Assembly: GCA_039806955.1 (NCBI GenBank)
Contig: JBDHQI010000003.1
Coordinates: 29,856-93,855 of the forward strand
Source: Verrucomicrobiota bacterium
GTDB taxonomy: Bacteria; Verrucomicrobiota; Verrucomicrobiia; Limisphaerales; JADLHS01
Reading direction: 5' to 3'
DNA: 64,000 bases
The notes below the pieces were generated by a model. It was not told the origin of the DNA. It saw only the letters and a list, made by a program, of their open reading frames with translations, and did not search any database. Below, one piece after another: positions 4,128 through 33,932 of this stretch (position 1 is the stretch's first letter; the number at the start of each line of letters is the position of its first letter). The translations under genes were made by a program, and so were the position numbers.

Positions 4128-4150
4128 TCCAGATTTTTTCTGTGGCCTGC

Positions 4151-11865: not shown

Positions 11866-11869
11866 TGCG

Positions 11870-13824: not shown

Positions 13825-13909
13825 TCTGCAAACACGGAGAAATCGTGCCGCCCGGTCGGAATGGAAAGCTCCGTCCGTTCTTGCGTGCTGCCGCATTTCG
13901 CGCGTCAAC

Positions 13910-16272: not shown

Positions 16273-16300
16273 TGTTCAGAAACTGAAACTGGAAAAGTTT

Positions 16301-16912: not shown

Positions 16913-16933
16913 TTTCAACCAAGTCACCCTACG

Positions 16934-19438: not shown

Positions 19439-20452
19439 TTACTCTTTCGCCACATTCAGAGTGAACCGCGCGAATTTGGACACGCCGCCGATTTGGACTT
19501 GGGCGTAGAGTCGCATCAGGCCGGGTTGCTCGGGTTCAATGTGGAACTCCAGACTGCCCGCGCCGCGATCGGCATCTGACTTCGGCTCTGCGCCCATCGG
19601 GTGAATGTGGACGATGGATTTGTAATCTTCGCCAAAGCCCACAAGGTGCGCGTAGGTGGCCATGATGGGTTCAAGCTGGGTGAAGATTTTTCCGTCGGGC
19701 GAGGTGATGCGGAGTTTGCCCATCGTGGCTTCGCCAACCTTGAGCTTGGCTTTGTTGAACACGACTTCGTATTTCAACCCTTCCACCTCGGTCACCGTCT
19801 TGATGTCCCGCTCAGTGATCGGTTCGCCCTGGGTGGGTGCGGCGATGTCCGTCATGGAATACTCCTGCGCGTCCGTGGCGACAGGGAGCAAGTCTGCCCA
19901 TGCACGATAAGCGCCCGGCTTGAGTGGTGTGAAGCTGAAGGCGTATTCGCCCGGTGTGCCGGTCGGCACGGGGTGTTCGTGATGATAATCCGTGAGGCTC
20001 TGGTCGTTGATGAGCAGGTGAATCTTTTTCGTGTGCGCGTCCTTCAAGTCGGAGAGCAGCACGGGCGAGCCGTCCTTCTTGGTCAGCCGCAAGATGGCTT
20101 CGGCCTTCTGCCCCACCTGCAAAGGCGCGGTGGTGGTGACGGTGGCGATGAGCGTCGGCTCGGTGGCATGGCCGCCGTGTGCGCCTTCCTCGTGTCCGCC
20201 GCCTGCGACCTGTTTCAACGTCATGCCGCACTTGGGACATTTGCCCGGTTTGTCGGATTCACTGCCCTCGCACTTCATCGGACAGATGTATTTGGCGGCG
20301 GCAACGGCGTGTTCATGGCCGGCCTTTTCAGCAGTGGCATGATCGTGGCCGGGCGCTTCGCCAGCGCTGTGTTCGTGTTCGCTGCGGTTGCAGGCGGTGA
20401 ACGCCAGCGCGATGGCCAGCACGGAAACGGAGAGGAGCAATGTTTTCTTCAT
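19439..20452 (-). CDS. lipoprotein with His-rich linker, HMBD module and two Ig-like (YtkA/FixH-like) domains
   Basis: Start moved to ATG 20452 (MKKTLLLSVSVLAIALAFTAC). HEHSAGEAPGHDHATAEKAGHEH, then YICPMKCEGSESDKPGKCPKCGMTL, then ..IHLLINDQSLTDYHHEHP.. and ..HIHPMG.. Confidence 0.75.
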   Translation of the reverse strand: MKKTLLLSVSVLAIALAFTACNRSEHEHSAGEAPGHDHATAEKAGHEHAVAAAKYICPMKCEGSESDKPGKCPKCGMTLKQVAGGGHEEGAHGGHATEPTLIATVTTTAPLQVGQKAEAILRLTKKDGSPVLLSDLKDAHTKKIHLLINDQSLTDYHHEHPVPTGTPGEYAFSFTPLKPGAYRAWADLLPVATDAQEYSMTDIAAPTQGEPITERDIKTVTEVEGLKYEVVFNKAKLKVGEATMGKLRITSPDGKIFTQLEPIMATYAHLVGFGEDYKSIVHIHPMGAEPKSDADRGAGSLEFHIEPEQPGLMRLYAQVQIGGVSKFARFTLNVAKE

Positions 20453-20524
20453 GGATTTTGGATTGATGAGTTTGGTGCGCGGCGGGTGGACGACCAAAGT
20501 CGCCCGCCCGCCGCCGAGATTTTA

Positions 20525-20644
20525 TTAGTGGCTATGCGTGTGAGTCGCGGAAGGCTGGCTGGAATTATCCTCCATGCTGGCGCAGCCGGTCAGCATAAGG
20601 CCCGCCGCCAACAACGTGAGCAAGACGGTGATTTTGATTTTCAT
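20525..20644 (-). CDS. mini-lipoprotein (39 aa; predicted mature 19-aa His-tailed peptide), absent from ORF track
   Basis: My translation gives ATG 20644 .. TAA 20527-20525: MKIKITVLLTLLAAGLMLTGC/ASMEDNSSQPSATHTHSH. Lipobox and mature length match 3836-3982. It is wedged between two HMBD genes. Confidence 0.5.
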   Translation of the reverse strand: MKIKITVLLTLLAAGLMLTGCASMEDNSSQPSATHTHSH

Positions 20645-20673
20645 TATTTAGTTGGAGCAACGCGTTCTGGCGT

Positions 20674-21234
20674 TCAGTGTTTGTGTTCGTCCTTTTTGGC
20701 CACGAGCTTCATGCCGCACTTGGGGCATTTACTGGGGCTGTCCTGCACCACGTCTTCGTGCATCGGGCAGGTGTATTGCATCGCGTGCTCGCCGCTTTCC
20801 ATCTTCATGCCGAACTGCGTTCCCAGCACTTTGAGCAAGCCGTCGAGCTTCTTGAGGTTCGCCTCGGTCTTCGCCTGATCCTTCGCGTCGCCGGAGGCGT
20901 CGAGGTCCTCGGCCAGCTTGGCGATGTTCTTTACCGTGCCTTCGACCTGGGTTTTCTTGTCTGCGGGAGCTTTGGGCACGAGCGCCTTCGCCAAGTCACG
21001 GATTTCAAAGGCAGTTTCGTGGACCTTTTCGAGCTGCTTCTTTTCCACGATTTCCTTCAACTCCGCGTGGTGCTCTTTGATTTCCTTCCAGATACCTTCG
21101 ACCGTGTCGGGGATTTTCGCCTTCTCCCCGGCCTTGTGTTCGTGGCCTTCCTGCGCCGACGCGGTGGTGGCGGTCAGGCCGGTAAATCCGATGGCGGCGC
21201 AAAGCCCCATCGCCAGTAGTGTTTTCATTTTCAT
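20674..21234 (-). CDS. periplasmic helical protein with C-terminal HMBD module
   Basis: Signal peptide ..TATTASA, a Lys/Glu-rich helical domain, then YTCPMHEDVVQDSPSKCPKCGMKLV and a KDEHKH tail. Its start overlaps the RND pump stop by 1 nt (TAATG). Confidence 0.75.
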   Translation of the reverse strand: MKMKTLLAMGLCAAIGFTGLTATTASAQEGHEHKAGEKAKIPDTVEGIWKEIKEHHAELKEIVEKKQLEKVHETAFEIRDLAKALVPKAPADKKTQVEGTVKNIAKLAEDLDASGDAKDQAKTEANLKKLDGLLKVLGTQFGMKMESGEHAMQYTCPMHEDVVQDSPSKCPKCGMKLVAKKDEHKH

Positions 21235-24200
21235 TATTTTTCTTTCGTGGTTGCTTCTCCAACACCGGACGCAACACCGGTTTCCGCCAACGTGGCGGCG
21301 GCGTCTTGTTTGCGATGTTGGGGAAAATCATTTGAGCCGTTCCCCGGCAAAGCCGGGATGGCATCCAGTGGATCGGTCTGGTCGCGCTGGATGTATTTCT
21401 CCGCCGCTTTGCGGCCGAATTTGAAAAACACGGCGGGCGTCACCGCCATGTCGAGCAGCGTCGAGCTGATGAGTCCGCCGAGAATGACAACGGCGACCGG
21501 ATACAAAATCTCTTTACCGGGCTGACCCGCCGCGAGCACGAGCGGAATGAGCGCCAGGCCCGCGACGGCGGCGGTCATCGTCACGGGCACGAGCCGTTCG
21601 AGCGAGCCGCGCACGATCATCTTCTCGTCGAACTTCTCGCCCTCGTGTTCCATCAGGTGGATGTAGTGCGAAATCATCATGATGGTGTTGCGCGAGGCGA
21701 TGCCGGCCAGCGTGATGAGGCCGACGAGCGTGGCGATGGAAACTTTGCCGACCATGAAGTAGGTCAGCGCCAGCCCACCGATGAACGCCAGCGGGATGTT
21801 CAGCAGGATTTGCCCAACAATCATCGTCGAGCGGAAGTGTGAAAAGAGGACGAGGAACATCGTCGCCAGCGTCACGATGGAAAGGATGCCGATGAGCCGT
21901 GTGGCTTCCTGCTGGCTCTGGAACTGGCCTTCGTAGCTGATGAAGAAACCGGTCGGCAAGTGAACCTTCTCGGTAATCTTCTTTTGAATTTCAGTGACGA
22001 CCGCCCCGAGGTCGCGCCCGGAGACGTTCGCCTGAACCACGATGCGCCGCTGGACGTTTTCGCGGTTGATGATGTTCGGGCCTTTGCTCTCGCGCACGTC
22101 CGCCAGCAACGCCAGCGGAACTTTCTGGCCGTTGGCCGTATCCACGAGCATCTGGCGCATGTCTTCAACGTGGTTGCGCGACACTTCGTCGTAGCGGACA
22201 AACACATCGTAAGTCTTCTGGCCGTCGAGCACCTGGGCGACCGTTCGACCGTTGAGCGCGGTTTCGAGCAGCTCGTTGAGTTCGCCCACTTGAATGCCAT
22301 AGAGCTTGGCCTTTTCGCGGTCGGGCTGGATGCGGACTTGCGGCATCAACACCTGCTTCTCGATCTGCAAATCCACGATGCCCTCCACGGTTTTCATCTG
22401 GCCCTCGACCTCGGCGGCGGCGGCGCGTAACGCTTCGAGGTTCTCGCCGAAAATCTTCACGGCGATTTGCGCGCGCACGCCGGAAAGCAAATGATCCAGT
22501 CGGTGCGAAATCGGCTGGCCCACGCTGAAGACCACGCCGGGGATTTGGCCGAGTTTGTCGCGCACGTCGTCGAGGATTTGCTCGCGCGTTCGTTTGGACT
22601 TGCGGAAGTCCACGTCAATTTCGGTGTAGTGAACGCCTTCGGCGTGTTCATCCAGTTCCGCGCGCCCGGTGCGGCGTCCGGTGGAGATGACTTCGGGGAC
22701 GGTGAGCAAAAGCTTCTCGGCGATTTCGCCGATGCGGTCGGATTGTTTGAGCGACGTGCCGGGTGCGGACAGCACGTTGATGGTGGCCGTGCCTTCGTTG
22801 AACTCCGGCAAAAATTCCTTGCCCATCATCGGGTAAAGCGCGAATGAGCCGATCACCAGCACCAGCGCGATGCCCATTACCCACCACGGATGGCGCAGCG
22901 TGTATTTCAAAATCACCGCGCGGTCGAAGGCTTTGAGTTGCCGCACGACCCAGCCGTCCGCCTCGTGTTCCATGCGTTTCATGCGCGGCAACAGGTAGGA
23001 ACAGAGCGCGGGAATCACCGTCAACGACACGACGAACGACGCAATCATTGCCACGATGGTCGCCACGCCGATGGGTGCGAACAATCGGCCTTCAATGCCG
23101 CCCAATCCGAACAGCGGGATGAACACCAGGATGATGAGCAGCGTGGCGAACAGGATGGAGTTCCGCACTTCCGCCGAAGCGTTGGCGATGACGCGCAGAA
23201 CCGGCTTCGGTTGCGTCGCGTGGCGGTTCTCGCGCAGGCGGCGGAAGACGTTTTCCACATCTACAATCGCGTCGTCCACCACCATGCCGATGGCTACGGC
23301 CAGACCGCCGAGCGTCATGGTGTTGATGGTGATGCCCGCCCACTTGAAATAGAGAATCGTCACAACGAACGACAGCGGGATGGCCGTGAGCGTGATGAGC
23401 GTGGTGCGGAAGTTCAGCAGGAACAGGAACAGGATGATGACGACCATGATCGCGCCGTCGCGAATGGCTTCTTCGACGTTGCTGATGGCGGCGTCAATGA
23501 AGCTGGCCTGCTTGAACAGCGGCGTGATTTTGATGTCGGCGGGCAAACCTTTTTGGATTTCGGCCAGCGCCTTCTCGACTTCAGCGGTGAGTTTGATGGT
23601 GTCCATGCCGGGCTGTTTCTGCACCGACACAATGACGGCGGACACGCCGTTGACGCCCGCGTCGCCGCGCATGACCCGTTTGTCGAACTTCACCTCGGCC
23701 ACGTCCTTGAGCAGGATGGGCACGCCCTGGCGCGATTCGATGACGGTGTTGGCGATGTCCTCGATGGCGATGCTGCGTCCGATATTACGGATGAGCGCCT
23801 CTTGGTTCGCGCCTTCGAGAAATCCACCGGCGGTGTTGACCTGCGACTTCTCAGCGGCATCAGTGACTTGTTTGAGCGTGATGCCAAAGGCCGCCATCTT
23901 CTCCGGCGAAGCAAGCACCTGGTATTGTTTCACGCCGCCGCCAATCGGGATGACTTGCGATACGCCCGGAATGGTCAGCAGGCGCGGGCGCACCGTCCAA
24001 TCGGCGATGGTGCGCACGTCCATCGGCGCGGTCTTGCCGCCCTCGCTCGACAGGCCGATCAACATGATCTCGCCCATGATGGAGGAAATCGGACCCATCA
24101 CCGGGCTGACGCCCTTGGGCAATTTTTCGGCGGCAAGTTGCAGACGTTCCTGAACAAGTTGGCGAGCGCGATAGATGTCCATGCCCCAATCGAATTCCAC

Positions 24201-24482
24201 GTAAAGAATCGAAAGTCCGATGCCGGAGTTGGAGCGGACACGCTTGACGCCCGGTGCGCCGTTCAACGCGGTTTCCAGCGGCAGCGTGACCAGCGTCTCG
24301 ACTTCTTCGGGCGCGAGGCCGGCCGCTTCCGTGAGGATGTTGACGGTCGGGCGGTTCAAGTCCGGGAACACGTCCACCGGCAGTTTGAGCGCCACGAACG
24401 CGCCGTAAGCCAGCACGAGGATGCTGGCCGCCACGATGAACAGGCGGTTGCGCAGCGAAAATTCAATGAGGCGGTTTAACAT
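21234..24482 (-). CDS. heavy-metal-efflux RND inner-membrane pump (CusA/CzcA family)
   Basis: 1082-aa, 12-TM RND architecture. MLNRLIEFSLRNRLFIVAASILVLAYG N-terminus. The TM4 motif is AIGMVVDDAIVDVENVFRRL. Confidence 0.95.
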   Translation of the reverse strand: MLNRLIEFSLRNRLFIVAASILVLAYGAFVALKLPVDVFPDLNRPTVNILTEAAGLAPEEVETLVTLPLETALNGAPGVKRVRSNSGIGLSILYVEFDWGMDIYRARQLVQERLQLAAEKLPKGVSPVMGPISSIMGEIMLIGLSSEGGKTAPMDVRTIADWTVRPRLLTIPGVSQVIPIGGGVKQYQVLASPEKMAAFGITLKQVTDAAEKSQVNTAGGFLEGANQEALIRNIGRSIAIEDIANTVIESRQGVPILLKDVAEVKFDKRVMRGDAGVNGVSAVIVSVQKQPGMDTIKLTAEVEKALAEIQKGLPADIKITPLFKQASFIDAAISNVEEAIRDGAIMVVIILFLFLLNFRTTLITLTAIPLSFVVTILYFKWAGITINTMTLGGLAVAIGMVVDDAIVDVENVFRRLRENRHATQPKPVLRVIANASAEVRNSILFATLLIILVFIPLFGLGGIEGRLFAPIGVATIVAMIASFVVSLTVIPALCSYLLPRMKRMEHEADGWVVRQLKAFDRAVILKYTLRHPWWVMGIALVLVIGSFALYPMMGKEFLPEFNEGTATINVLSAPGTSLKQSDRIGEIAEKLLLTVPEVISTGRRTGRAELDEHAEGVHYTEIDVDFRKSKRTREQILDDVRDKLGQIPGVVFSVGQPISHRLDHLLSGVRAQIAVKIFGENLEALRAAAAEVEGQMKTVEGIVDLQIEKQVLMPQVRIQPDREKAKLYGIQVGELNELLETALNGRTVAQVLDGQKTYDVFVRYDEVSRNHVEDMRQMLVDTANGQKVPLALLADVRESKGPNIINRENVQRRIVVQANVSGRDLGAVVTEIQKKITEKVHLPTGFFISYEGQFQSQQEATRLIGILSIVTLATMFLVLFSHFRSTMIVGQILLNIPLAFIGGLALTYFMVGKVSIATLVGLITLAGIASRNTIMMISHYIHLMEHEGEKFDEKMIVRGSLERLVPVTMTAAVAGLALIPLVLAAGQPGKEILYPVAVVILGGLISSTLLDMAVTPAVFFKFGRKAAEKYIQRDQTDPLDAIPALPGNGSNDFPQHRKQDAAATLAETGVASGVGEATTKEK

Positions 24483-24495
24483 GATGGCATCCTGT

Positions 24496-25695
24496 TCACT
24501 TGGAAACCGATCCGGTTGGTGCGTTGCTGGCAGACGGCGGCACCGCAGCCTCGGTCGTGGTGACTGCGCGTTTTTTCAGCAGCACCGCAATCAGGTTCGC
24601 CAGCAACAGCACGCCCAGCGCGAGGCCCATCCAGAGCAATGGCGAAGCCGCCGCGCCTGCGTGTTCGTGGTCGGCAGTCTTTGGCTCATCATGGGTGGCA
24701 GCGGGTGCATTTGTGCCGCCCGCTGCGGCGGGCTTGCGCGTGGTAACATATTGAAGCTGGTAGTTGCCGAGCGTGACGACTTTGTCGCTGGGGAAAATGC
24801 CCTCGACCACTTCCACGTAACGGTCGTCCTTCATGCCGAGCACGACGGGCTTTCGCTCAAACACCAATTCGTCCGTGTCCGACTGCACGAAGGCGAACAA
24901 GTTACCCGCCTCGCCAAGCACGGCGCTGTGCGGCACGGTTACGACCGAATCCGCCTCGGCGGTGACGATGTTGAGTCGCGCGCGCATGTTGGGGCGCAAC
25001 TTGAGGTCGGGGTTCTTGATTCGCACCCACACCTTGAGCGTGCGGGTTTCGGCATCGAGCGTGCCACTCAACAAATCCACCGTGCCGATGAACTCGTTCG
25101 TAGGATACGATTCAACCGAGACGCGAACCTTCTGGCCCGTTTTAATCGCGGCGATTTGTCCCTCGAAAATCCGCCCTTCGGCATAGACCTCCGACAAATC
25201 CACGATTTCCATCAAGTGTTTGTTCGGCTCAACCGAGTCACCTTGCACGGCGTGGCGGTCAATGACGACGCCATCAATCGGCGCGGCGTATTGCACGCGC
25301 GGCGGCGGGTCGCCGAGTTGCAGGCTTTCCACTTCCACGACGACCTGGCCTTTCTTCACCGACTCGCCATCGCTGACTTTCACATCAATCACGCGACCGG
25401 CGATACGGCTGCTGACGGCAGCGGAGTGATTGGGGATGATTTCGATCTGGCCGAAGACGAGCACGGTTTTGTCGAGCGTGCGCAACTGCGCTTCCTCGAC
25501 CACAAGCGCGAGGTTTTTCCTCGCCTCGGCGGTAATGGCAATTGGACCGGTGGTCGCGGCGTTGCCATCTTCGCCGGGTGCTTTGTTGTGGCCTTCATGC
25601 GGGAAGGCGGCAGGCGCGAAAGCGAGCAGCGCGACGAGTGTCGCGGATAATTTCAAATGGTTTGGTTTCATAATCGTTTCAGTCGGTAATTTCAT
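24496..25695 (-). CDS. RND efflux periplasmic adaptor (MFP)
   Basis: Biotinyl-lipoyl/beta-barrel MFP pattern (APIDGVVIDRHAVQGDSVEP..; VRVSVESYPTNEFIGTVDLLSG). The C-terminal TM tail is unusual. The start at 25695 gives an ATGA overlap with the tolC-like stop; an alternative start is ATG 25671. Confidence 0.9.
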   Translation of the reverse strand: MKLPTETIMKPNHLKLSATLVALLAFAPAAFPHEGHNKAPGEDGNAATTGPIAITAEARKNLALVVEEAQLRTLDKTVLVFGQIEIIPNHSAAVSSRIAGRVIDVKVSDGESVKKGQVVVEVESLQLGDPPPRVQYAAPIDGVVIDRHAVQGDSVEPNKHLMEIVDLSEVYAEGRIFEGQIAAIKTGQKVRVSVESYPTNEFIGTVDLLSGTLDAETRTLKVWVRIKNPDLKLRPNMRARLNIVTAEADSVVTVPHSAVLGEAGNLFAFVQSDTDELVFERKPVVLGMKDDRYVEVVEGIFPSDKVVTLGNYQLQYVTTRKPAAAGGTNAPAATHDEPKTADHEHAGAAASPLLWMGLALGVLLLANLIAVLLKKRAVTTTEAAVPPSASNAPTGSVSK

Positions 25696-26957
25696 TTCAC
25701 GGGCAGCACGGCGGCAGTTGCCGTTTCCCACTCGGTCTTGGCGCGGACAAATCCAGCGAGTGACTCAAGGTAGGAGAGGCGCAAATCCGTCAACTGTTGT
25801 TGCGCTTGAATGACGGCGGTGATGGTGACGAGGCCGTCGGCGTAGCCCTTTTGCAGCAGCGCGATGTTTTCCTCCGCGAGCTTGATGGATTCCTCGCGAT
25901 ACTGGCGCAGGATGTCGAGCAATCGGCGCATCTGGTTCTCCGCCGTCTGCGCCTCGGTGGCGATGCGCAAATCGAGCGCGTTTAACTCGGCTTCGGCGCG
26001 CTGTTGGGTGGCTTGCGCTTCGTTGACTCGACCTTGATTGCGATTCCAAAATGGCAGCGGAATCGAAACACCCACGCCAAGGAAATTGTCGGTCTTTGTG
26101 CCAATGGGCGCATCGAACTTGCCCACCGAGCGGCTGTAATCAAAGCCCACCGTCCAATCCTCCCACTTCTCTGCCTTGGCCAGTTTGATTTCCGCTCCCG
26201 CGCGGTCAATGCCGAGCGCCGCCAACTGACGGTCGGGGCGGCGGGCAATCGCCTGGCGCGAAATCTCTGCAACGGTATTCGTGTCAAACTCTGCGCTCGT
26301 CGCGCCGGACATCTGGAGCGGCGTTTGCGGCTCGCGCCCAAGCAGGCGGTTCAGCGTCGTCGCGGCGATTTCCTGCTGATTGCTCAACGTCGCCTGCGCC
26401 AACGCCAGCCTCTGCAATTCCAGCTTGGCTGAGTTCACATCAGCAGCAGAAACCTCGGCGACTTTCAATCGCTTCTCCGAAACCTCGATGACTTTTTGAA
26501 TGACGCCCTGAATCTCCTGATTCGCCTTGAGCTTCTCCTGCGTGACGAGTAGTTCGCGGCTCAGCCCAAGCGCTTCACCCGCAAGCAGCCGCTCCTGATT
26601 GCGCACTTCGGCCAACGCCATCGCCACGTCCACGCGGGCGACGGCCTTGGCTTTCTTCAGTCGTCCGGTGATTGGGAAGCGTTGCTTGAAGCCGGTCGCG
26701 AAATCGTATTCGCCGTCGTTGGCAAACGCGCTGTCGTTCTTCCCGCCAAGTTCAAACTCCGGATTGGGCCACAGCCCGGCCTGCTTCAGCCGCCCCTCGG
26801 CTTGGCGGATGGCAAAGCGCGCGGCGGCAAGATCGCGGTTCTCTGCCAGCGCCGTTGCCACGGCGCTTTCCGGCGTGAGGTTGGTCGCTATTGGCCCGGC
26901 GATTGCGCTGAACCCGGCCAACAGAACCACTGAATAAATTGAAAATCGTTTGAACAT
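25692..26957 (-). CDS. TolC-family outer-membrane efflux protein (CzcC-like)
   Basis: 421-aa ORF with a signal peptide and two OEP repeats. It lies directly upstream of the MFP and RND pump. Confidence 0.9.
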   Translation of the reverse strand: MFKRFSIYSVVLLAGFSAIAGPIATNLTPESAVATALAENRDLAAARFAIRQAEGRLKQAGLWPNPEFELGGKNDSAFANDGEYDFATGFKQRFPITGRLKKAKAVARVDVAMALAEVRNQERLLAGEALGLSRELLVTQEKLKANQEIQGVIQKVIEVSEKRLKVAEVSAADVNSAKLELQRLALAQATLSNQQEIAATTLNRLLGREPQTPLQMSGATSAEFDTNTVAEISRQAIARRPDRQLAALGIDRAGAEIKLAKAEKWEDWTVGFDYSRSVGKFDAPIGTKTDNFLGVGVSIPLPFWNRNQGRVNEAQATQQRAEAELNALDLRIATEAQTAENQMRRLLDILRQYREESIKLAEENIALLQKGYADGLVTITAVIQAQQQLTDLRLSYLESLAGFVRAKTEWETATAAVLPVK

Positions 26958-27046
26958 AATTCGTCATCTAAAATTGGATTTCGGAAATAATCTGCCTGTA
27001 ACAAGACAGAGGACTCCCCTGACACAAAGGACAGGGAACGGAGAGG

Positions 27047-27090
27047 AACTTGAATCAGGCCCGCGCGATGGCGCGCAGTTGATTCAAGTT
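27047..27090 (-). other. two-tier intercistronic stem-loop (11-bp outer + 5-bp inner stem)
   Basis: AACTTGAATCA (27047-57) pairs with TGATTCAAGTT (27080-90). Inner GCGCG (27063-67) pairs with CGCGC (27072-76). It starts at the stop codon of 27089-27550 and precedes the tolC-like gene. Confidence 0.5.
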
Positions 27091-27550
27091 AAACGAGGGG
27101 CGGAGCGTGACTGCGGAACGCCGGACCAAGGCACACTTCAGGCGTGAAGATGAATTCACGGTGTGGCGGTTGGCGCGAAATTGGCGCTTCGGACTGAACG
27201 AAAGTCAGCGCCTGGGACAGCCAAAGCAGATTAAACGAGAGCAGCTTCCCAAAATCAGGCTTGGTAAGGATGGTTTGGTGGGCCGAAGGCGCGGCGGCTG
27301 TGAGCGAAGAACAACAGGCATGTTCGTCGCCGCTGTTCTTGTCCGAATCGTGCGAGTGATGATCGGAATCTGCGGACGCAGGAGCAGCGTCGTGCTCATG
27401 TTGGACTGCACCGTCTGCATGATGATCTGCACCGATCAAGGACTCCACCGAGCAGAAGCCGGACGCAGCAACCCAGACCAATAGCGACACCACCGCACAG
27501 AGGCGAAGGGCCAGCGATGATTTGCGTTGTCGCGAATGGGTCATGCTCAA
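27089..27550 (-). CDS. His/Asp-rich membrane-anchored or secreted protein
   Basis: 153-aa ORF with a hydrophobic N-terminus (LALRLCAVVSLLVWVAASGFC), then ADHHADGAVQHEHDAAPASADSDHHSHDSDKNSGDEHACC. It holds the position occupied by small accessory genes upstream of czcC-type genes. Confidence 0.55.
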   Translation of the reverse strand: MSMTHSRQRKSSLALRLCAVVSLLVWVAASGFCSVESLIGADHHADGAVQHEHDAAPASADSDHHSHDSDKNSGDEHACCSSLTAAAPSAHQTILTKPDFGKLLSFNLLWLSQALTFVQSEAPISRQPPHREFIFTPEVCLGPAFRSHAPPLV

Positions 27551-27603
27551 TTGAAATCCGCCCGTATATTATTGAAATTGATTCTCACCGTCAACGCCGC
27601 TGG

Positions 27604-27894
27604 TTACTTCTTGGCCTTCTTTTCCTCCTCGGAAAGTTTCTTCATGTATTTGGCACTGTCCTTCTTGAAGTCGGAGAGGCAGCCCTTGCAGCAGAGTTTG
27701 ATTTCTTGGCCTTCGTGCGTGAACACGTAAGGATCGCCCATGCTGCCAAGCTTTTCGCCATCGGTGATGCAGGTCGTGAGCGGATACGGCTTGGGTTTGT
27801 CAGCTTTCTTGGCATCGTCAGCAAATCCGGCGAACGGCGCGGCCAGCAGGGTGGCAGCGATGAGTGCGGCAAAGGCGTGTTTCAATGATTTCAT
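27604..27894 (-). CDS. secreted YHS/TRASH-like Cys protein
   Basis: Signal peptide ..APFAGFA, then YPLTTCITDGEKLGSMGDPYVFTHEGQEIKLCCKGCLSDFKKDSAKY (C..CC-x2-C-x3-F pattern as in YHS/TRASH metal domains) and a Lys/Glu tail. Confidence 0.6.
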   Translation of the reverse strand: MKSLKHAFAALIAATLLAAPFAGFADDAKKADKPKPYPLTTCITDGEKLGSMGDPYVFTHEGQEIKLCCKGCLSDFKKDSAKYMKKLSEEEKKAKK

Positions 27895-27932: not shown

Positions 27933-27957
27933 ATTACGCCGGTGCGCGGCAAATCCC
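27933..27957 (-). promoter_or_regulatory. ECF-type promoter candidate GGGATT-N13-CGTAAT
   Basis: Minus strand reads TGAGGGATTTGCCGCGCACCGGCGTAATACAAG, 39 nt upstream of start 27894. It heads the RND operon 2 gene string. Confidence 0.55.
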
Positions 27958-28069
27958 TCAAAAATCTTTTGGCCGTGCCAGCGCATACCTGATCAGACAC
28001 CGGGACGGGCTGAAGATTCAATTTGACGCGGCTGGCACGCCACCCGTCTCATGTTGAGGGATAACCCGT

Positions 28070-29362
28070 ATGGACACGACTGCCTTGGTTGAATTGATCG
28101 CCCGCTACAAAGCCGACCCGGAGTCGGTCTATAACACCTGGTTCATCAACGGCGCGGAGCGCATGAAGGCGTTTCGCGCGATTCGACGCGGGGTGAAGGA
28201 CACGGTTGACGCCATCGCCGCCGGCACTTTTGGCAATGATTTCAAAGGCTCGCCGCTGGAAATCGTGCTCACGGCCATCACGGAGCAAAAGCAGGTCTTT
28301 GAGGGCGCGGCCCATCCGTTTTACTGGAAGCCCAAGCTGCGGATTCCCGACATTTACGAGAATCAGATCAACAAACAGAAGTTTGGCGCATTTCTGCAAG
28401 CGTGCCTCGTCGCGACTCGCGAAGACCAGGTGCTTGCCGAAATGAGTCGCCTCGGTTCGGCGCAAATCAAAGGGCTTGGCCCGGCGGCTGCCAGCATCAT
28501 TTACTTTTTACACCCAACGCTCGTTCCGCCGTTCAACACGGCGATGGTCAACGGATTCAACGCACTGTTTGCGGACAAGAAGAAACTCGGTTCGTGGACC
28601 AGCTATCTCGACATGCGCGAAGTCATCGTCCGCACGAATGACGAAGTGCGCGATCATCTCTCGAAAGACCTTGGCGCGTTTGCTGGTTTGTTATTTGAAA
28701 TCGGCAGTGGACGACTCGTCATCGCGGGCAATGCCGAGAACGTGCTGCAAGACGCAAAAGAGAAAGCGGTGAAAGTCGCCCGTGCTCGCCACAAAGATGT
28801 CCTGGCCGAACAAGAGGAAGAATCCGAGCACACGCGGATGCAACACCTGCTCATCAAAATCGGGCGTTCGCTGAAATACGATGTCCATGTCGCCCGCAAC
28901 GACCGGCATCGCACCTGTCACGGCGAAAACTTTGCGATGCTCACCGTGCCGCAACTACCACCGCAGAACTTGTCGGCGGAAGTGATGGACACCGTGACAT
29001 TGATTGACGTGATCTGGCTCAAGCCCGGCAACGGCGAGATTGTGAGCGCGTTTGAAATCGAGAAAAGCACGTCCATCTATTCCGGCATCCTGCGGCTGGA
29101 GGATTTAGCGCGCTCGATCCCCAACGGCGCGTGCCCGCTTTACCTCGTCGCGCCGAATGACCGCGAGAAGGAAGTCTTGGCACAATTGGCCCGTCCCGCG
29201 TTTCGCGCCGACCTTGAAAAAATCTCGCTCGCGTTTCTGCCGTTCAAGGAGCTTGCCGAACATTGCGACGCGCTTTGCAAGTTTGGAGACGACCACACGA
29301 TCTTGCAGAAGATTGCACGCGGCTTGAAGTCTTCCGCGCCGCCGCTTCAGCCGGCCAATTGA
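28070..29362 (+). CDS. PD-(D/E)xK nuclease-fold protein (restriction-endonuclease-like), solitary
   Basis: 430-aa ORF. The C-terminal HLLIKIGRSLKYDV...TLIDVIWLKPGNGEIVSAFEIEKSTSIYSGILRLEDL fits a D...(D/E)xK core (IDV..EIEK). The N-terminal ~230 aa domain is unassigned. It is the only plus-strand gene between 19.4 and 34.4 kb. Confidence 0.55.
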   Translation: MDTTALVELIARYKADPESVYNTWFINGAERMKAFRAIRRGVKDTVDAIAAGTFGNDFKGSPLEIVLTAITEQKQVFEGAAHPFYWKPKLRIPDIYENQINKQKFGAFLQACLVATREDQVLAEMSRLGSAQIKGLGPAAASIIYFLHPTLVPPFNTAMVNGFNALFADKKKLGSWTSYLDMREVIVRTNDEVRDHLSKDLGAFAGLLFEIGSGRLVIAGNAENVLQDAKEKAVKVARARHKDVLAEQEEESEHTRMQHLLIKIGRSLKYDVHVARNDRHRTCHGENFAMLTVPQLPPQNLSAEVMDTVTLIDVIWLKPGNGEIVSAFEIEKSTSIYSGILRLEDLARSIPNGACPLYLVAPNDREKEVLAQLARPAFRADLEKISLAFLPFKELAEHCDALCKFGDDHTILQKIARGLKSSAPPLQPAN

Positions 29363-29371
29363 GCTTCGTTC

Positions 29372-29869
29372 TCAATTTCCAACGCGACTGTAAGTGTCGG
29401 TGCGCGAAACGTCGTCGTGATTCATCATCTGCTCGCGCAGGCAGGTTTGCTCCTGCACCCAGGATAAATAGCGCCTACCTTGTTCCGGCGGCATGGCGCG
29501 GCTGACTTCAAAGAAATGCTTGAGCATCGCGGTCTGACATTCGCTTCGCATTTTGGCCCGTTCGGTGAGTGCGTTTTCAATTGCGGGCGTCAGGTCGGAA
29601 GTGGTGGCAAGCAATTGGCCCAGCCTGTCGTTCATTTGCCGGATGAGACGACAACGCTCCCGGCACTGCGGGAGATAGGCTTCATGCAATTTTGAAAGCC
29701 GCTCGAATTCCCCGTCGCTTAATTTGAACTCCTGCTTGAGCCAGACGAGTTCGGGTTGGCGGCTTTGCAACAATGCTCGCGGCCCGGTCGTTCCTGCCAG
29801 ATAGATGCAGTAATAGGAAGCAATTGCTGCCATCATACCGAAACCGAGAATCAAGAATCCGCGTCGCAT
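29372..29869 (-). CDS. membrane-anchored helical periplasmic sensor, CnrX-like architecture (copy 2)
   Basis: N-terminal TM (FLILGFGMMAAIASYYCIYL). It shares PEL.WL..EF, LH.AY.P.C.E.C, R.EC.TAML.HF and MPPEQG.RYL.WVQ.QT with 31666-32154. Confidence 0.7.
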   Translation of the reverse strand: MRRGFLILGFGMMAAIASYYCIYLAGTTGPRALLQSRQPELVWLKQEFKLSDGEFERLSKLHEAYLPQCRERCRLIRQMNDRLGQLLATTSDLTPAIENALTERAKMRSECQTAMLKHFFEVSRAMPPEQGRRYLSWVQEQTCLREQMMNHDDVSRTDTYSRVGN

Positions 29870-29872
29870 AGC

Positions 29873-30217
29873 TCACCTGGCCGCTTGATAGGGATCAACC
29901 GATTGCACATAGCGCTGGCTCATCTGTGTGCTAACTCGCAACCTCTCCTGCTGCGCCTGCGCCCACCCCGCACTTGCACCAATGACGAGGAGGATCGCCA
30001 CGTAGGAAACGGCCAACCCGGGGCGGCGCAACCGCGCGTCAACCCAGCGCGCGCAAGTCAGCCACAGGGCAACGAGAGTGGAAGGCTCGTCTTCTTGGCG
30101 CGCGATTTGTCGCCAGACTCTCTCTTGGAAACGCGGTGGCAACGTGACTGTGATCTTGCACTCGCGCAACAAGGCGCTCAATCCCGCGTCCTGCTCAATT
30201 CGTGCTTCGGCTTTCAT
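29873..30217 (-). CDS. single-pass anti-sigma-like protein, CnrY-like architecture (copy 2)
   Basis: 114 aa with LPPRFQERVW in the cytoplasmic part, one TM (LAVSYVAILLVIGASAGW) and a short periplasmic tail ending YVQSVDPYQAAR. Paralogue of 32155-32493. Confidence 0.6.
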   Translation of the reverse strand: MKAEARIEQDAGLSALLRECKITVTLPPRFQERVWRQIARQEDEPSTLVALWLTCARWVDARLRRPGLAVSYVAILLVIGASAGWAQAQQERLRVSTQMSQRYVQSVDPYQAAR

Positions 30218-30227
30218 TGTTTGATTC

Positions 30228-30257
30228 GGAGGGCGGTGGGTTTGAGCCGCGCCCTCC
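30228..30257 (-). other. GC-rich stem-loop between repeat-protein gene and anti-sigma-like gene
   Basis: GGAGGGCG (30228-35) pairs with CGCCCTCC (30250-57), 11 nt upstream of the 30217 start. Its position is equivalent to the hairpin at 32501-32525. Confidence 0.4.
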
Positions 30258-30287
30258 AGTTTGGTGGTTGCCGGTTTTGATTCGCTC

Positions 30288-30692
30288 TCACTTCAATGGC
30301 GCGATCTGGTAAGCGCCGTTGCGCTCGTCGAGAAACTGACGGAGTTTCGGCGAGGCTGTGATACCGTCATCGCCGGTCGCGCGATAGCCGACCTTGACGA
30401 CTGCTGTTCCGGGCATGCTCTCCACACCACGGCTGTCATTGATGAATTGCCGCAGTTTCGGCGAAGCGGTTATCCCATCCACGCCGGTGGCTCGATAACC
30501 GACGGACGCGACGGTGGCAGACTTCGCGCCTTTCACCATCGGCTTGCCGCGCTCATTCATAAACTGGCGCAGTTTGGGAGACGCCGCGATGCCATCATCG
30601 CCCACGGTGTTGTGTTGAGCCTGGCTTTGGCTGGTCGAGGCGAGCAAAGCGACTGCGGCGGCTGCAATCAGAATCAATTTTGTATTTTTCAT
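30288..30692 (-). CDS. secreted repeat protein (3x DGI(T/A)ASPKLRQF) with YQIAPLK tail
   Basis: Start moved to ATG 30692 (MKNTKLILIAAAAVALLASTSQSQA). Repeats are GDDGIAASPKLRQFMNERG, GVDGITASPKLRQFINDSRG and GDDGITASPKLRQFLDERNG. It ends AYQIAPLK. Confidence 0.75.
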   Translation of the reverse strand: MKNTKLILIAAAAVALLASTSQSQAQHNTVGDDGIAASPKLRQFMNERGKPMVKGAKSATVASVGYRATGVDGITASPKLRQFINDSRGVESMPGTAVVKVGYRATGDDGITASPKLRQFLDERNGAYQIAPLK

Positions 30693-30738
30693 AGTGTTAC
30701 TTTCGTTGGGTGCGCTTTGTTCGCACCATCCACTCTTC

Positions 30739-30763
30739 ATTACGCCGCAGCCGGGAAAATCAC
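30739..30763 (-). promoter_or_regulatory. ECF-type promoter candidate GTGATT-N13-CGTAAT
   Basis: Minus strand reads CGAGTGATTTTCCCGGCTGCGGCGTAATGAAGA, 47 nt upstream of start 30692. Confidence 0.5.
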
Positions 30764-30834
30764 TCGCAGGAAGGAAAAAGCCGTCTCGCTGCGAACTTCG
30801 GCAGTGAGACGGCTGAGAAGGAATGGCCTTGGGG

Positions 30835-31041
30835 TCAGCGTTTTTCGACTAGCGCCATACCGCACTTGGGGCAGCTACCGGGCTTGTCCTGCACAACTTC
30901 CGGGTGCATACCACATGTGTATTTGACGGCCTGTCCACTGCCTTGCGTGGAGGATTCTTTTTTGCAGCCGGTCGCACCAATGGCAATGACTGCGACTGCT
31001 GCAACCGTGAACGCAGCGATGATGAGTTTGGATGTCTTCAT
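30835..31041 (-). CDS. small lipoprotein consisting of one HMBD module
   Basis: [26 protein letters not shown], then a short linker, then [28 protein letters not shown]. Confidence 0.7.
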
Positions 31042-31072
31042 GTTGTGTCGTTTGTGGAGTGAGGTTTTCGGT

Positions 31073-31669
31073 TCACGCGTAACTTTTCAGCAGCCAGCCG
31101 AGGTTTTCGCGCAAGAGTTTTCGGGCGCGGTAAATCCGCGTCTCCACCGCCTTTGGAGTGCAAGCCAGGATCGCGCCAATCTCCGCATGGGAAAGTTCCT
31201 CATATTCGGAAAGGATGAGTGGCGTGCGGAGTTCTTCGGGCAGTTGACCCACCGCGTTACGAACGGCTTCCGCCCGCTCTGCGCCTTGCAGTGACTCGCT
31301 GGGTGTCGGTTTGTCCTCCGCCACGCTCTCCCGGAAGCTCTCGCCGGTAACTTCGTTTTCTGCGTCCAGCGACACTTGCGGATGGCGCGTGCGGTAGCGG
31401 TAGCGGCTTTTGACGAGGTTGGTGGCGATAACGTAAAGCCATGTCGAAAACTTGTGGCTCGCATCGAACCTCGCGCGGTTCTGGTAAACGCGCACAAATG
31501 TCTCCTGCGCGAGATCAGCGGCATCCTCCTCGCTTTGCAAACTGCGGACCAGATAGTGAAACAGTTTCTCGGCGTGTCGCTCCATGAGATCGTTCAACGC
31601 CGCGTCGTGGCCGGCGACCAATCGCGCCATGTCCGTCCGATCCGGGTCGTCGGTCGTGGCGGAATTCAT
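31073..31669 (-). CDS. ECF sigma factor (CnrH-like position in a Y-X-H module)
   Basis: Start moved to ATG 31669 ([17 protein letters not shown]..), giving an ATGA overlap with the upstream stop. Region 2 is [42 protein letters not shown]. Region 4 is [33 protein letters not shown]. Confidence 0.85.
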
Positions 31670-32154
31670 GGTTTGTTCATCGGAGCGACAGACGGCGAAT
31701 CGCCGGGCATCATCTTGCTCGGCTTCAAGGTTTGCTGCTGCACCCAATCGAGATAGCGTTTGCCCTGCTCGGGGGGCATGGTCTGCGCGACCTTGTAGAA
31801 GTGGTCAAGCATCGCGGTTTCACACTCGGCGCGGATTTCAGCAGCTTGGGCGAGCGCCTGTTTGATCTCCGGGGTGATGATGTTGGTGGCGGCGAGCAAC
31901 CTTTGGATTTCTGCGTTCTTCGCGTCAATCGTGCGGCACATTTCCTCGCACTTGGGCGCGTAAGCATTATGCAGTTCCATGACACGCGCCAACTGCGCGT
32001 CGGTGAGTTGAAACTCCATCTGCAACCACGCCAGCTCCGGGCGGGTGTTGCGTTCAACAGAACGCTGTGCGGATGTTTTGCCGAAATAGATGCAAAGGTA
32101 GGCGCACACCGCGAGCGCCAGCCCGCCGAAGATGATGAGCCACGGACGTTTCAT
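31666..32154 (-). CDS. membrane-anchored helical periplasmic sensor, CnrX-like architecture (copy 1)
   Basis: N-terminal TM (WLIIFGGLALAVCAYLCIYF). Helical periplasmic domain with C-x3-C (PKCEEMC), AEC, HF and MPPEQGKRYLDWVQQQT. Confidence 0.7.
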   Translation of the reverse strand: MKRPWLIIFGGLALAVCAYLCIYFGKTSAQRSVERNTRPELAWLQMEFQLTDAQLARVMELHNAYAPKCEEMCRTIDAKNAEIQRLLAATNIITPEIKQALAQAAEIRAECETAMLDHFYKVAQTMPPEQGKRYLDWVQQQTLKPSKMMPGDSPSVAPMNKP

Positions 32155-32493
32155 TCAGTTGCGGGGCGCTTGATACGGGTCAATGGACTGAACGTAGAGA
32201 GAGCGCATCTTGGATTCGGTTTGCGCGGTCTTGTCCTGCGCTTGCAAGTAGCCCGCTCCCAAGCCGACGAACAGGAGCACGGCGACATACACGGTGGCAA
32301 ATGCCGGACGCCGAAACACGGCCTCAATCCAGCGAACAGCCCCGGCAAAGACGCTCTGCGGCTTGCTTGCTTCCGCCCGGTCAATGGCTTTCCAAACCCG
32401 CTCTTGAAAGCGTGGCGGCAATGATGATTGTGGCTTCCACTCGTGGAGCAGTCCGCTCAACTGCCGGTCATTTTCGGGAATAGGTGTTTTCAT
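32155..32493 (-). CDS. single-pass anti-sigma-like protein, CnrY-like architecture (copy 1)
   Basis: 112 aa with LPPRFQERVW, a TM (FATVYVAVLLFVGLGAGYL) and a tail ..YVQSIDPYQAPRN. Its stop abuts the next start (TGAATG). Confidence 0.6.
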   Translation of the reverse strand: MKTPIPENDRQLSGLLHEWKPQSSLPPRFQERVWKAIDRAEASKPQSVFAGAVRWIEAVFRRPAFATVYVAVLLFVGLGAGYLQAQDKTAQTESKMRSLYVQSIDPYQAPRN

Positions 32494-32500
32494 AACGTGT

Positions 32501-32525
32501 GGGCGGCGGATTCATTCCGCCGCCC
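32501..32525 (-). other. perfect 10-bp GC stem-loop between repeat-protein gene and anti-sigma-like gene
   Basis: GGGCGGCGGA (32501-10) pairs with TCCGCCGCCC (32516-25) with a 5-nt loop. It ends 8 nt upstream of the 32493 start codon and has no U-tract. Confidence 0.5.
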
Positions 32526-32558
32526 GCTAAGTGTCGTTTGCGCGCCCGACATTTCAAG

Positions 32559-32909
32559 TTACTTCAGCGGCGCGATTTGAACTTCAGCCTTGCTGACGGC
32601 GTTGGCGCGGAGCGCGGCCTCGTAGCGCGAGTCTTTGGGCGACATCGTGGGGCGCGGCGCATGGGCCAGGTCAATACTCGGACCAGTGCTGGGCACAGAG
32701 CGGAAACTGCGGGCGAGTTCCCACGCTTTGGCGTTTCCTGCCGGGCGGTCCAGCGCCAGATTCACGTCGCTGGTGGCGGCGGGGACTTTCTTGAGCGAAT
32801 CGGCGAGGGCTTTGGCCTTCGGCGAATAGAGGGGTTCACCGGCATTGGCGTTGGCCGCGAGCGTGAACACACCGACAGCGGCAACTGCGAGGAGGATCAT
32901 TTTTTTCAT
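32559..32909 (-). CDS. secreted divergent SPK/AKA-repeat protein with VQIAPLK tail
   Basis: Start moved to ATG 32909 (MKKMILLAVAAVGVFTLAANANA). Degenerate repeats are YSPKAKALADSLKKVP, GNAKAWELARSFRSVP and MSPKDSRYEAALRANA. It ends AEVQIAPLK. Confidence 0.7.
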   Translation of the reverse strand: MKKMILLAVAAVGVFTLAANANAGEPLYSPKAKALADSLKKVPAATSDVNLALDRPAGNAKAWELARSFRSVPSTGPSIDLAHAPRPTMSPKDSRYEAALRANAVSKAEVQIAPLK

Positions 32910-32963
32910 AGCTTTATCTTTCTTTTTGCTGCGGCGTTTTGCCGCTGTTAATTCACATCCTTG

Positions 32964-32988
32964 AATACGCCGGGGGTCAAAGAATCCC
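32964..32988 (-). promoter_or_regulatory. ECF-type promoter candidate GGGATT-N13-CGTATT
   Basis: Minus strand reads TGGAGGGATTCTTTGACCCCCGGCGTATTCAAGG, 55 nt upstream of start 32909. The unit it heads contains the sigma gene 31073-31669. Confidence 0.55.
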
Positions 32989-33080
32989 TCCAAGATTCTT
33001 CAAAAGTGTGAACGCGAGGTAGATTTCTCAACGCAACCCGCAGAAATGCAGCCTAAAATGGAAGAAGACGACCCGAAGAC

Positions 33081-33932
33081 TTATCGCGCTTGGATGCGCT
33101 TTTCCAAGATTACGCGACCGGCCTTTGCATCAATGGTGACGGTGGAAAACCGGGAAAGCAGGCCGTTGCCGAGCAAACCAGCCTCGCCGGGAAAGATTGC
33201 CTTTTCGTGCAAGCCGGTTGGAACGTCGGAAAACTGATTTCCACCAATGCCGACAGATGTTTTGGTCTGAGGAATGGAAATCTCGGCCAAGCCGATGGCC
33301 ATCTGGTGCGTGCATTGGTCGGGCACATCCGAAGTCACCCATTGCAGCGCGGTGGCGCAACCGGTGTCGAGCCGCACCCATTGGCGGTCGTGACCATTTA
33401 CGCTGATCGGCACGCGCATCCCGCAGGAACGCAATTGGAGCGGCAAAGTTTCGCCGGATTGTCCGCCCTTCGGTGATTTCACCAACCGTATCTTCTTCGC
33501 GTCGAAATCAATTTGCACCACGCGCTCGCGAAAGAAATCCGCACCCACCAGTCCGTCCACGGGTCGCTCGCATGAACTGCTCAACTTTTCCAAATCAACC
33601 GCCAGATATTCGCTGGGCAACTTCGTGTCGCCGATTTTGGCGATCATGTGTTGCTGCCAATAGCCGGTGAGCATCGTGTCCACGCCGCGAACCGTGACCT
33701 GTTGTCCCAGCTTCAATCCGATGCGTTTGGCCGTGTCGAGATTGATGACGCTGACGCCCGCGCCGGTATCTACGAGAAAATTGAGCGGCTTCTCCGACTG
33801 CGGGATGACGACTTTGATCCAAAGCAATCCCTCGCGGTATTCAAACGGAAACTCGGTGGGAGAAGTTGCCGCCACTTCGTCGCGAGCAAACGCGACTTGA
33901 ACGGCTAAAATTGAGCACAACAACCAACGCAC
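33081..33932 (-). CDS. secreted two-lobed retropepsin-like aspartic protease
   Basis: Signal peptide MRWLLCSILAVQVAFA. Two catalytic-type motifs, FLVDTGAGVSVI and VRLDTGCATALQW, each sit in a ~120-aa lobe. Confidence 0.75.
   Translation of the reverse strand: MRWLLCSILAVQVAFARDEVAATSPTEFPFEYREGLLWIKVVIPQSEKPLNFLVDTGAGVSVINLDTAKRIGLKLGQQVTVRGVDTMLTGYWQQHMIAKIGDTKLPSEYLAVDLEKLSSSCERPVDGLVGADFFRERVVQIDFDAKKIRLVKSPKGGQSGETLPLQLRSCGMRVPISVNGHDRQWVRLDTGCATALQWVTSDVPDQCTHQMAIGLAEISIPQTKTSVGIGGNQFSDVPTGLHEKAIFPGEAGLLGNGLLSRFSTVTIDAKAGRVILEKRIQAR

Follow-up and report, generated by a model that had tools for sequence, protein, structure and literature searches.

A Putative CnrYXH-Type Regulatory Cassette with a Cysteine-Bearing Sensor, and Its σ-Less Second Copy, Close to a Heavy-Metal Efflux Operon in a Limisphaerales Bacterium

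We analyzed a 64,000-nucleotide (nt) stretch of DNA from a Limisphaerales bacterium of the phylum Verrucomicrobiota (contig JBDHQI010000003.1, positions 29,856 to 93,855), here called the window; all positions below are those of the whole window. It carries a cassette of three adjacent genes, encoding a presumed anti-σ factor (Y), a membrane-anchored sensor (X), and an extracytoplasmic function (ECF) σ factor, as well as a second Y-X pair that has no σ gene. The regulatory cassette is real, and its conservation extends across Verrucomicrobiota. On the strength of its gene order, the fold predicted for X, and a promoter motif shared with a neighboring operon, we consider it likely that Y, X, and σ form a three-protein transmembrane module of the CnrYXH type, and that this module controls the neighboring operon for a heavy-metal efflux pump of the resistance-nodulation-division type (HME-RND). 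To our knowledge, CnrYXH is the only structurally understood case of a periplasmic metal sensor that signals to an ECF anti-σ factor; the system has been described from a few Betaproteobacteria.

Both units lie on the minus strand. The first contains Y1 (112 amino acids [aa], 32155-32493), a single-pass membrane protein; X1 (162 aa, 31666-32154), the membrane-anchored sensor; and σ1 (198 aa, 31073-31669), with σ2 and σ4 regions. The stop codon of Y1 abuts the ATG of X1, and X1 and σ1 overlap by ATGA. The second unit contains Y2 (114 aa, 29873-30217) and X2 (165 aa, 29372-29869), 3 nt apart, with no σ gene after X2. A previous account, made from the letters and their open reading frames (ORFs) and referred to here as the sequence-only reading, had listed these five ORFs, and their translations confirm them at the same minus-strand coordinates. 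The motifs it quoted as shared between the copies (LPPRFQERVW and YVQS[IV]DPYQA in Y; LH.AY.P.C-x3-C, R.EC.TAML.HF, and MPPEQG.RYL.WVQ.QT in X) are all found in the translations, and the gene order it had likened to Cupriavidus cnrYXH, namely Y(-2) X(-1) σ(0), equals that of pMOL28 cnrYXH in translational coupling as well. Missing from that account were three members of the units. P1 (32559-32909), the first gene of unit 1, encodes a small secreted protein with a signal peptide, SPK motifs, and the C-terminus QIAPLK; P2 (30288-30692), the first gene of unit 2, encodes another, with three GDDGI(A/T)ASPKLRQF repeats and the same C-terminus. The last gene of unit 1 (30835-31041) encodes a lipoprotein-like protein of 68 aa with an HMBD domain (PF19335 at 54 bits). 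X1 and X2 are 46% identical (E 3e-55) and Y1 and Y2 48% identical (E 1e-33); these values rule out chance resemblance of the two pairs and indicate a true duplication. Since P1 and P2 open the two units, the duplicated unit is P-Y-X.

The arrangement is widespread. We surveyed, with ORFs and hidden Markov models (HMMs), 48 loci from GTDB species genomes plus L005 (SCN 57-15 Verrucomicrobium); L-numbers designate related loci. The 48 loci encoding relatives are nearly all from Verrucomicrobiota. The Y-X-σ order occurs in 45 places across them, in essentially every locus with enough flanking sequence, and efflux genes lie no more than 6 kb away in about 28. Their usual downstream order is a small YHS/TRASH-like protein, an outer-membrane protein (OMP), a membrane fusion protein (MFP, often with an HMBD domain), and an HME-RND pump. 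An HMBD gene after or before σ is also present in L001-L011. The X family as a whole comprises 713 representative clusters at E <= 1e-3, and X1 matches a Limisphaerales metagenome-assembled genome at 95%.

X is a relative of CnrX, as the HMM and structural comparisons proposed by the sequence-only reading bear out. Both copies score above the gathering cut-off (29.2 bits) of the Pfam family PF13801, Metal_resist (X1, 48.2 bits; X2, 35.6 bits), and X is already named 'periplasmic heavy metal sensor' by NCBI. The best matches of X to PDB sequences are CnrX and NccX, only at E about 0.1; the X family profile, built from 147 sequences, aligns with CnrX of pMOL28 over 91 columns with an hhalign probability of 95% and E 3.6e-8. 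In the AlphaFold2 model of X1 (predicted local distance difference test [pLDDT] 84.3), helices span residues 4-35 (the transmembrane [TM] helix), 39-48, 52-88, 95-123, and 128-142. When the model was compared with the PDB by Foldseek, the 15 best matches were all CnrX or NccX chains, with target-normalised TM-scores of 0.67-0.78 for 14 CnrX chains and 0.54 for NccX; STV, ZraP, and CpxP came next. Weak NCBIfam matches are to ZraP, CpxP, and Spy. The charges flanking the TM helix of X (N-flank net +1.8 versus +0.55) favor a cytoplasmic N-terminus, of which only about four residues would lie in the cytoplasm. The possibility that X itself is the anti-σ factor, as in ECF241-like systems, was rejected on account of these few residues.

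The X family carries a near-invariant signature, E47-H62-Y65-C69-C73-C111-M115-H118-M126 in X1 numbering. Among 150 representatives of 50%-identity clusters, where most exceptions are truncated sequences, C69 is present in 144, C73 in 142, and C111 in 139; the corresponding counts are 135 for H62, 120 for M115, 119 for H118, and 124 for M126. In all 45 of the genomic X orthologues linked to Y and σ, down to 27% identity, Y65-C69-C73-C111-M115-H118 is invariant. The triad of cysteines singled out by the sequence-only reading, which had named a lack of conservation in orthologues as grounds for abandoning its proposal, is thus near-invariant, and the two histidines and two methionines conserved alongside it (H62, H118, M115, and M126) were absent from that reading.

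The metal ligands of CnrX are H42, H46, E63, and H119, plus M123 for Ni/Co (PMC6851896). In the hhalign register these positions correspond in X1 to L41, Q45, H62, H118, and V122, respectively, so that a potential ligand is kept at only two of five (E63 to H62 and H119 to H118) and X1 does not carry the CnrX ligand set; the view that the sensor site is unlike the His/Glu/Met site of CnrX is upheld. In the same register C69 aligns with R70 of CnrX and C111 with L112. Both cysteines are exactly seven residues, one heptad, beyond E63 and H119 on two antiparallel helices, and because the offset is the same on both helices, C69 and C111 should lie face to face, as E63 and H119 do, if the alignment register is correct. 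C73 is one turn past C69, and M115 is one turn from C111 towards H118. X most probably takes a soft or borderline metal as its ligand, which a Cys3(Met) cluster next to a pair of histidines would bind. The layout recalls the Cu(I) site of CsoR-type proteins, in which a Cys plus an H-x3-C motif span two antiparallel helices: in both cases an x3-spaced pair on one helix has a third ligand opposite, in X the C69-x3-C73 pair facing C111. CsoR is nonetheless a cytoplasmic DNA-binding repressor of unrelated function, and the geometry of X is read from the alignment register only.

Y1 is predicted to have a cytoplasmic N-terminus of about 63 aa, a TM helix at residues 64-84, and an outer tail of 28 aa containing YVQSIDPYQ. 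Conserved segments of the family are D-x2-L-x3-L-x2-W and LPPRFQExVW in the cytoplasmic part and YVQSxDPYQ in the tail, and a charge count of +1.06 versus 0 favors a cytoplasmic N-terminus here too. Y1 thus has the CnrY-type layout of about 100 aa, one TM helix, an outer tail of about 30 aa, and a sensor gene directly downstream. No Pfam family was found for Y, and neither Y1 nor Y2 has a zinc-finger or RskA-like anti-σ domain in Pfam or NCBIfam; an NCBIfam 'antisigma' match is sub-threshold (E 2.5e-4). As X has only about four cytoplasmic residues, Y is the sole protein of the cassette able to reach σ, and we presume, by analogy with CnrY, that Y binds σ as an anti-σ factor.

A shared ECF-type promoter motif, TGAGGGATT-N10-CGGCGTAWT, or GAG(G/T)GATT-N10-CGGCGTA(A/T)T, is found 5' of P1, of P2, and of the first gene of the efflux operon. 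The window contains five matches against 0.07 expected. Three are exact, all on the minus strand: GAGGGATT-N10-CGGCGTATT at 32964-32990, before P1-Y1-X1-σ-HMBD; GAGTGATT-N10-CGGCGTAAT at 30739-30765, before P2-Y2-X2; and GAGGGATT-N10-CGGCGTAAT at 27933-27959, before the efflux operon. The second pair does therefore have the promoter motif of its own that had been ascribed to it, but the motif sits 5' of P2 and not directly 5' of Y2. Promoters immediately 5' of Y1 or Y2 were considered and discarded, those spacers holding only GC-rich hairpins. Read from pMOL28, cnrYp is AGGGGGAG-N13-CGTATA and cnrCp is GAGGGGAA-N14-CGTATA; the window motif, written as GAGGGATT-N13-CGTAAT, resembles their common form (A/G)GGGG(A/G)-N13/14-CGTATA when judged by eye, with a G-rich -35 element (GAGGG) and a CGTA(T/A) -10 element. 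In relatives the motif has the consensus tTGAGGGATTc-N-cGGCGTAtT and lies 0-150 nt 5' of P/Y and T96/OMP genes in many diverse loci; the site before P2 is conserved in L008, L009, and L011, and in other loci T96 or OMP genes are preceded by equivalents of the site before the efflux operon. Such a pattern is that expected of an autoregulated ECF σ factor that also drives an efflux operon, and the presence of the motif before all three transcription units places the σ-less P2-Y2-X2 in the same predicted regulon.

The predicted target operon (21234-27894, minus strand) encodes, in order, a small YHS/TRASH-like protein (27604-27894; weak TRASH/YHS match), a His-rich CzcI-like protein (27089-27550; weak CzcI match), an OMP (25692-26957; OEP match), an MFP (24496-25731; RND_mfp match), and an HME-RND pump (21234-24482; TIGR00914, 826 bits). 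For the identity of the metal, NCBIfam places the pump only in the generic CusA/CzcA family, and a tblastn search of the pump against plasmids returned only the name 'efflux RND transporter permease', with no metal; the nearest relatives of the pump on plasmids come from Magnetospirillum and Hymenobacter and are likewise RND permeases.

Two further copies of the motif, each with two mismatches, lie on the minus strand at 13800-13826 and 4103-4129. The former lies before a CBM48/AMPK1_CBM-like ORF (13376-13681) and a third ECF σ factor (12475-13341; BLASTP identity to σ1, 38%), an arrangement suggestive of a σ cascade; downstream of the latter are a small lipoprotein-like ORF (3836-4096) and a gene for an outer-membrane efflux protein (2364-3788).

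σ1 itself contains only Sigma70_r2 and Sigma70_r4_2 (Pfam) and TIGR02937 (NCBIfam). With an anti-σ gene at -2, a sensor gene at -1, and an operon for metal efflux close by, its context agrees with that of ECF291, a group described as having a CnrY-like anti-σ factor at -2 and an efflux operon (PMC7826278). An orphan ECF σ factor at 13910-14575 (-), with no adjacent Y-X pair, is a candidate second partner for Y2. The sequence-only reading had called it near-identical to the σ factor of the cassette; the two are only 70% identical. It had also counted four local σ factors, where the window shows no fewer than five ECF-like ORFs.

The position where a σ gene would follow X2 is occupied by a reverse-oriented gene for an NmeDI_C-like protein (430 aa, 28070-29362, plus strand; PF27126 domain), which lies between X2 and the promoter of the efflux operon. 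The same gene occupies the σ position in L008 and L011, and related loci carry σ exactly there, so loss or displacement of σ is the likeliest history in this lineage; the NmeDI_C-like gene probably displaced a σ gene after X2. Outside its own lineage, the nearest relative of X2 is the X of L020 (64%), where X is followed by σ and then by an efflux operon, and L005 has two P-Y-X modules, each with its own σ. The P2-Y2-X2 arrangement is kept in L008 (X2 87% identical) and L011 (73%). Both genes are intact, preserve all residues of the signature, and recur in L008 and L011; Y2-X2 is probably functional. That two sensors might converge on one σ was already proposed in the sequence-only reading; given the shared motif before both units and the σ gene after X2-type pairs in related genomes, convergence of Y1-X1 and Y2-X2 on one σ is plausible. 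The target of Y2-X2 could be σ1 or the orphan σ at 13910, and its role that of a second input or of an induced brake.

In the mechanism that we propose, Y would be a minimal single-pass anti-σ factor whose cytoplasmic N-terminus of about 60 residues tethers the ECF σ at the membrane, while X, held by one TM anchor, would display a four-helix hooked hairpin of CnrX type in the periplasm. A ligand, most likely a soft or borderline metal ion, would bind the cluster on the two long helices of X, where C69 and C73 would stand opposite C111 and M115, beside H62 and H118 at the positions of CnrX E63 and H119. Binding would alter the contact of X with the conserved outer tail of Y (YVQSxDPYQ), and the freed σ would transcribe from the TGAGGGATT-N10-CGGCGTAWT promoters of three operons. 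The second Y-X pair, as a σ-dependent member of the regulon, would provide either a second input onto σ1 or the orphan σ at 13910, or induced negative feedback. In this scheme we infer the binding of Y to σ, the contact between X and Y, the topology, the identity of the ligand, and the σ partner of Y2.

Several conserved features accompany the cassette. Directly 5' of P1 lies a gene for a secreted aspartic protease (33081-33932, minus strand) with two lobes (DTGA and DTGC; retropepsin-like, PF13650/PF13975). It is outside the σ-dependent transcript and is also a neighbor in L005, L008, L011, L012, L016, L018, L020, L022, and L023; the protease could process P, X, or Y. Copies of the P family lie in the window at 32559-32909, 30288-30692, 5259-5729, and 6126-6575, all on the minus strand, and are characterized by a signal peptide, (I/L)(A/T)ASP(K/R)xxxxF repeats, and a conserved C-terminus (Q/E)(I/V)APLK; the copy at 5259-5729 is fused to a Cys-rich domain resembling that of 14656-15117. 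No Pfam or NCBIfam family matched P1 or P2, and none of 446 homologues of the family has a Pfam domain or an informative name. P-type genes lie upstream of Y in many related loci; in some, the protein before Y ends in a Cys-rich tail instead.

Hairpins punctuate both units. The P1-Y1 spacer holds a GC-rich hairpin at 32501-32525 (-) (RNA fold -28.9 kcal/mol, z -3.0, without a T-run), the P2-Y2 spacer another at 30227-30258 (-) (-19.4 kcal/mol, z -2.2), and unit 1 closes with an intrinsic terminator-like hairpin and U-run at 30774-30814 (-) (-25.2 kcal/mol, z -4.3, then UUUUU). The P-Y hairpins, of 8-10 bp, GC-rich, and without a T-run, stand a few bases 5' of the Y start codon; they are found in both window units and in four of five spacers tried from other loci (L005:7588-7654, L016:5584-5654, L023:5578-5654, and L012:2072-2129), or six of seven in total. 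Such a hairpin may be an attenuator or an mRNA-stabilizing element that sets a high ratio of P to Y-X-σ.

Metal-handling genes run through the whole region: the genes at 19439-21234(-), 30835-31041(-), 27604-27894(-), 27089-27550(-), 11024-12517(-), 14656-15117(-), and 15774-17446(+) comprise three HMBD (PF19335) proteins, the YHS/TRASH-like and His-rich CzcI-like proteins, a DUF3347 protein, several Cys-rich secreted proteins, and a MerR/MerT-P-like cluster. By its gene content, the whole region is consistent with a multi-metal resistance locus.

Among known systems the closest parallel is CnrYXH/NccYXH of Cupriavidus metallidurans, which responds to Ni/Co and belongs to ECF20, now ECF291. 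Shared with it are the anti-σ/sensor/σ order with stop/start and ATGA coupling, a membrane-anchored PF13801 sensor that is homologous to CnrX and forms a four-helix hooked hairpin, a protein of about 100 aa (the presumed anti-σ factor here) that crosses the membrane once and has about 30 aa in its outer tail, an adjoining HME-RND efflux operon, and autoregulation of the operon, here predicted from the promoter motif. Unlike CnrX, X lacks H42, H46, and M123, has His in place of E63, and has gained a Cys3/Met cluster one heptad away; the cassette also differs in its extra conserved P, HMBD lipoprotein, and aspartic protease genes, in its second, σ-less P-Y-X unit, and in its host phylum, Verrucomicrobiota as opposed to Betaproteobacteria. 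Published ECF classification already links the σ groups ECF281, ECF290, and ECF291 to PF13801 proteins (PMC7826278). In ECF281 and ECF290 (Casas-Pastor et al. 2021, PMC7826278) the anti-σ factor is at +1, followed at +2 by a 'heavy-metal resistance' protein of PF13801; the present cassette resembles these groups in the genetic linkage of an ECF σ to a PF13801 protein and to metal stress, but its order is reversed (anti-σ at -2, sensor at -1) and its Y has no zinc-finger or RskA-like domain. X has in common with Spy, CpxP, and ZraP, which belong to the Pfam clan of PF13801, a helical hairpin, a presumed periplasmic location, and a presumed part in envelope or zinc stress signaling; unlike them it is membrane-anchored, paired with an ECF σ, and marked by the Cys/His/Met signature, and its LTXXQ score of 17.8 bits is below the cut-off of 24.3. 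Spy, CpxP, and ZraP are soluble and work with two-component systems. We found no literature study of the Verrucomicrobial Cys-bearing X family under the descriptions CnrX-like, 'periplasmic heavy metal sensor', or PF13801.

A number of observations weigh against a CnrYXH-type metal module. The likeness of Y to CnrY holds in size and topology (112 versus 95 aa, one TM helix) but not in sequence or profile: hhalign of the Y family against CnrY gives a probability of 0.2%, that is, no similarity, and neither Y alone nor the Y profile finds a meaningful match, or any solved anti-σ factor, among PDB sequences. The AlphaFold2 model of Y1, with helices at 7-18, 27-42, 48-60, and 64-104, is of low confidence (pLDDT 66). 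The likeness being one of size and topology only, a CnrY-like fold and σ binding are attributed to Y conditionally. σ1 is 34% identical to CnrH and is closer to other σ factors in the PDB (SigW 1e-27, AlgU 3e-24, RpoE 2e-19, against 1e-17 for CnrH); these scores do not establish that the cassette as a whole shares its ancestry with cnr. The pump has only 31% identity to CnrA. In TM4 it carries AIGMVVDDAIVDVEN, with two adjacent Asp residues, where CnrA has DFG..DGA..VEN, and this motif points to no particular metal. Three of five CnrX ligands are lost in X1, and, the periplasm being oxidizing, the cysteines of X may be disulfide-bonded and not metal ligands.

The main rival to a metal input keeps the same Y-X-σ wiring and has X sense thiol or redox stress, or envelope-protein stress, through a reversible disulfide (C73/C111 or C69/C111) or by chaperone-type sensing like that of Spy, CpxP, and ZraP. 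In the redox form, oxidants, thiol-reactive compounds, or failure of Dsb would shift the X-Y contact. The odd count of conserved cysteines in the presumed periplasmic helix pair, the structural matches to ZraP, CpxP, and STV that come next after CnrX, the weak NCBIfam matches to ZraP, CpxP, and Spy, and the loss of three of the five CnrX ligands all speak for it. We nevertheless judge this rival unlikely: the context is consistently metal-related (HME-RND pump, HMBD, YHS/TRASH-like, and His-rich proteins), the co-conservation of H62, M115, H118, and M126 with the cysteines is more in keeping with a metal site than with a disulfide switch alone, and the equivalents of CnrX positions 63 and 119 still bear ligands. 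More radically, Y might not be an anti-σ factor at all, with σ controlled otherwise (for example through cleavage of P or X by the upstream secreted protease, or at the level of transcription alone) and Y and X serving as accessory metal-handling proteins of the membrane and periplasm. Y indeed has no recognizable anti-σ domain, and about 10 loci retain the secreted retropepsin-like protease and the P proteins as neighbors. The protease, though, is outside the σ-dependent transcript and absent from most loci; X, with its few cytoplasmic residues, leaves Y alone able to reach σ; Y then X, with σ next or next but one, recurs in essentially every locus with enough flank; Y has its weak NCBIfam 'antisigma' match; and CnrY, an analogue whose role is proven, is just as minimal a protein (95 aa). 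We regard this explanation as quite improbable.

For the second unit, an alternative to a second input is that P2-Y2-X2 is an induced brake, in which additional anti-σ factor and sensor, produced only once σ is active, re-sequester σ and reset the system, or else a remnant left without its σ by insertion of the NmeDI-like gene. We count this as possible, if doubtful. The σ-dependent motif is the only recognizable promoter of P2-Y2-X2, related loci have σ where the window has the reverse-oriented NmeDI_C-like gene, and L005 has two complete modules, all in favor of this alternative; the Y2 and X2 ORFs, on the other hand, are both intact, the arrangement persists in L008 and L011 (X2 87% and 73%), the orphan σ at 13910, 70% identical to σ1, is on hand as a partner, and X2 keeps the full ligand signature and Y2 the tail motif, which X2 would not need for mere titration of σ. 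We retain the CnrYXH-type module as the likely reading of the cassette. A more far-reaching version of it, to which we lend only limited credence, is that the CnrX scaffold has been re-equipped phylum-wide with a periplasmic thiolate site (C69, C73, and C111, joined by M115, H62, and H118) that senses a soft metal such as Cu(I), Ag(I), Cd(II), or Hg(II), or metal plus redox, that Y represents a previously unrecognized anti-σ family, and that two pairs act on one σ, aided by the secreted P proteins. If true, this would be a multi-input circuit, similar to CnrYXH but mechanistically distinct.

CnrYXH-like logic appears to be widespread in Verrucomicrobiota, with about 45 genome loci and sequence clusters that number in the hundreds. 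New here are a sensor with a different, fully conserved set of Cys, His, and Met residues, a signature by which a thiophilic or redox variant of CnrX might be recognized, and a presumed anti-σ family that has been without annotation. The promoter motif and predicted regulon should be useful for annotation and for metal biosensors, and the cassette with its second unit offers a natural case of two sensor/anti-σ pairs and one σ for the study of signal integration. The analysis also gives a functional hook to the hypothetical families Y and P, which are common in soil and wastewater metagenomes.

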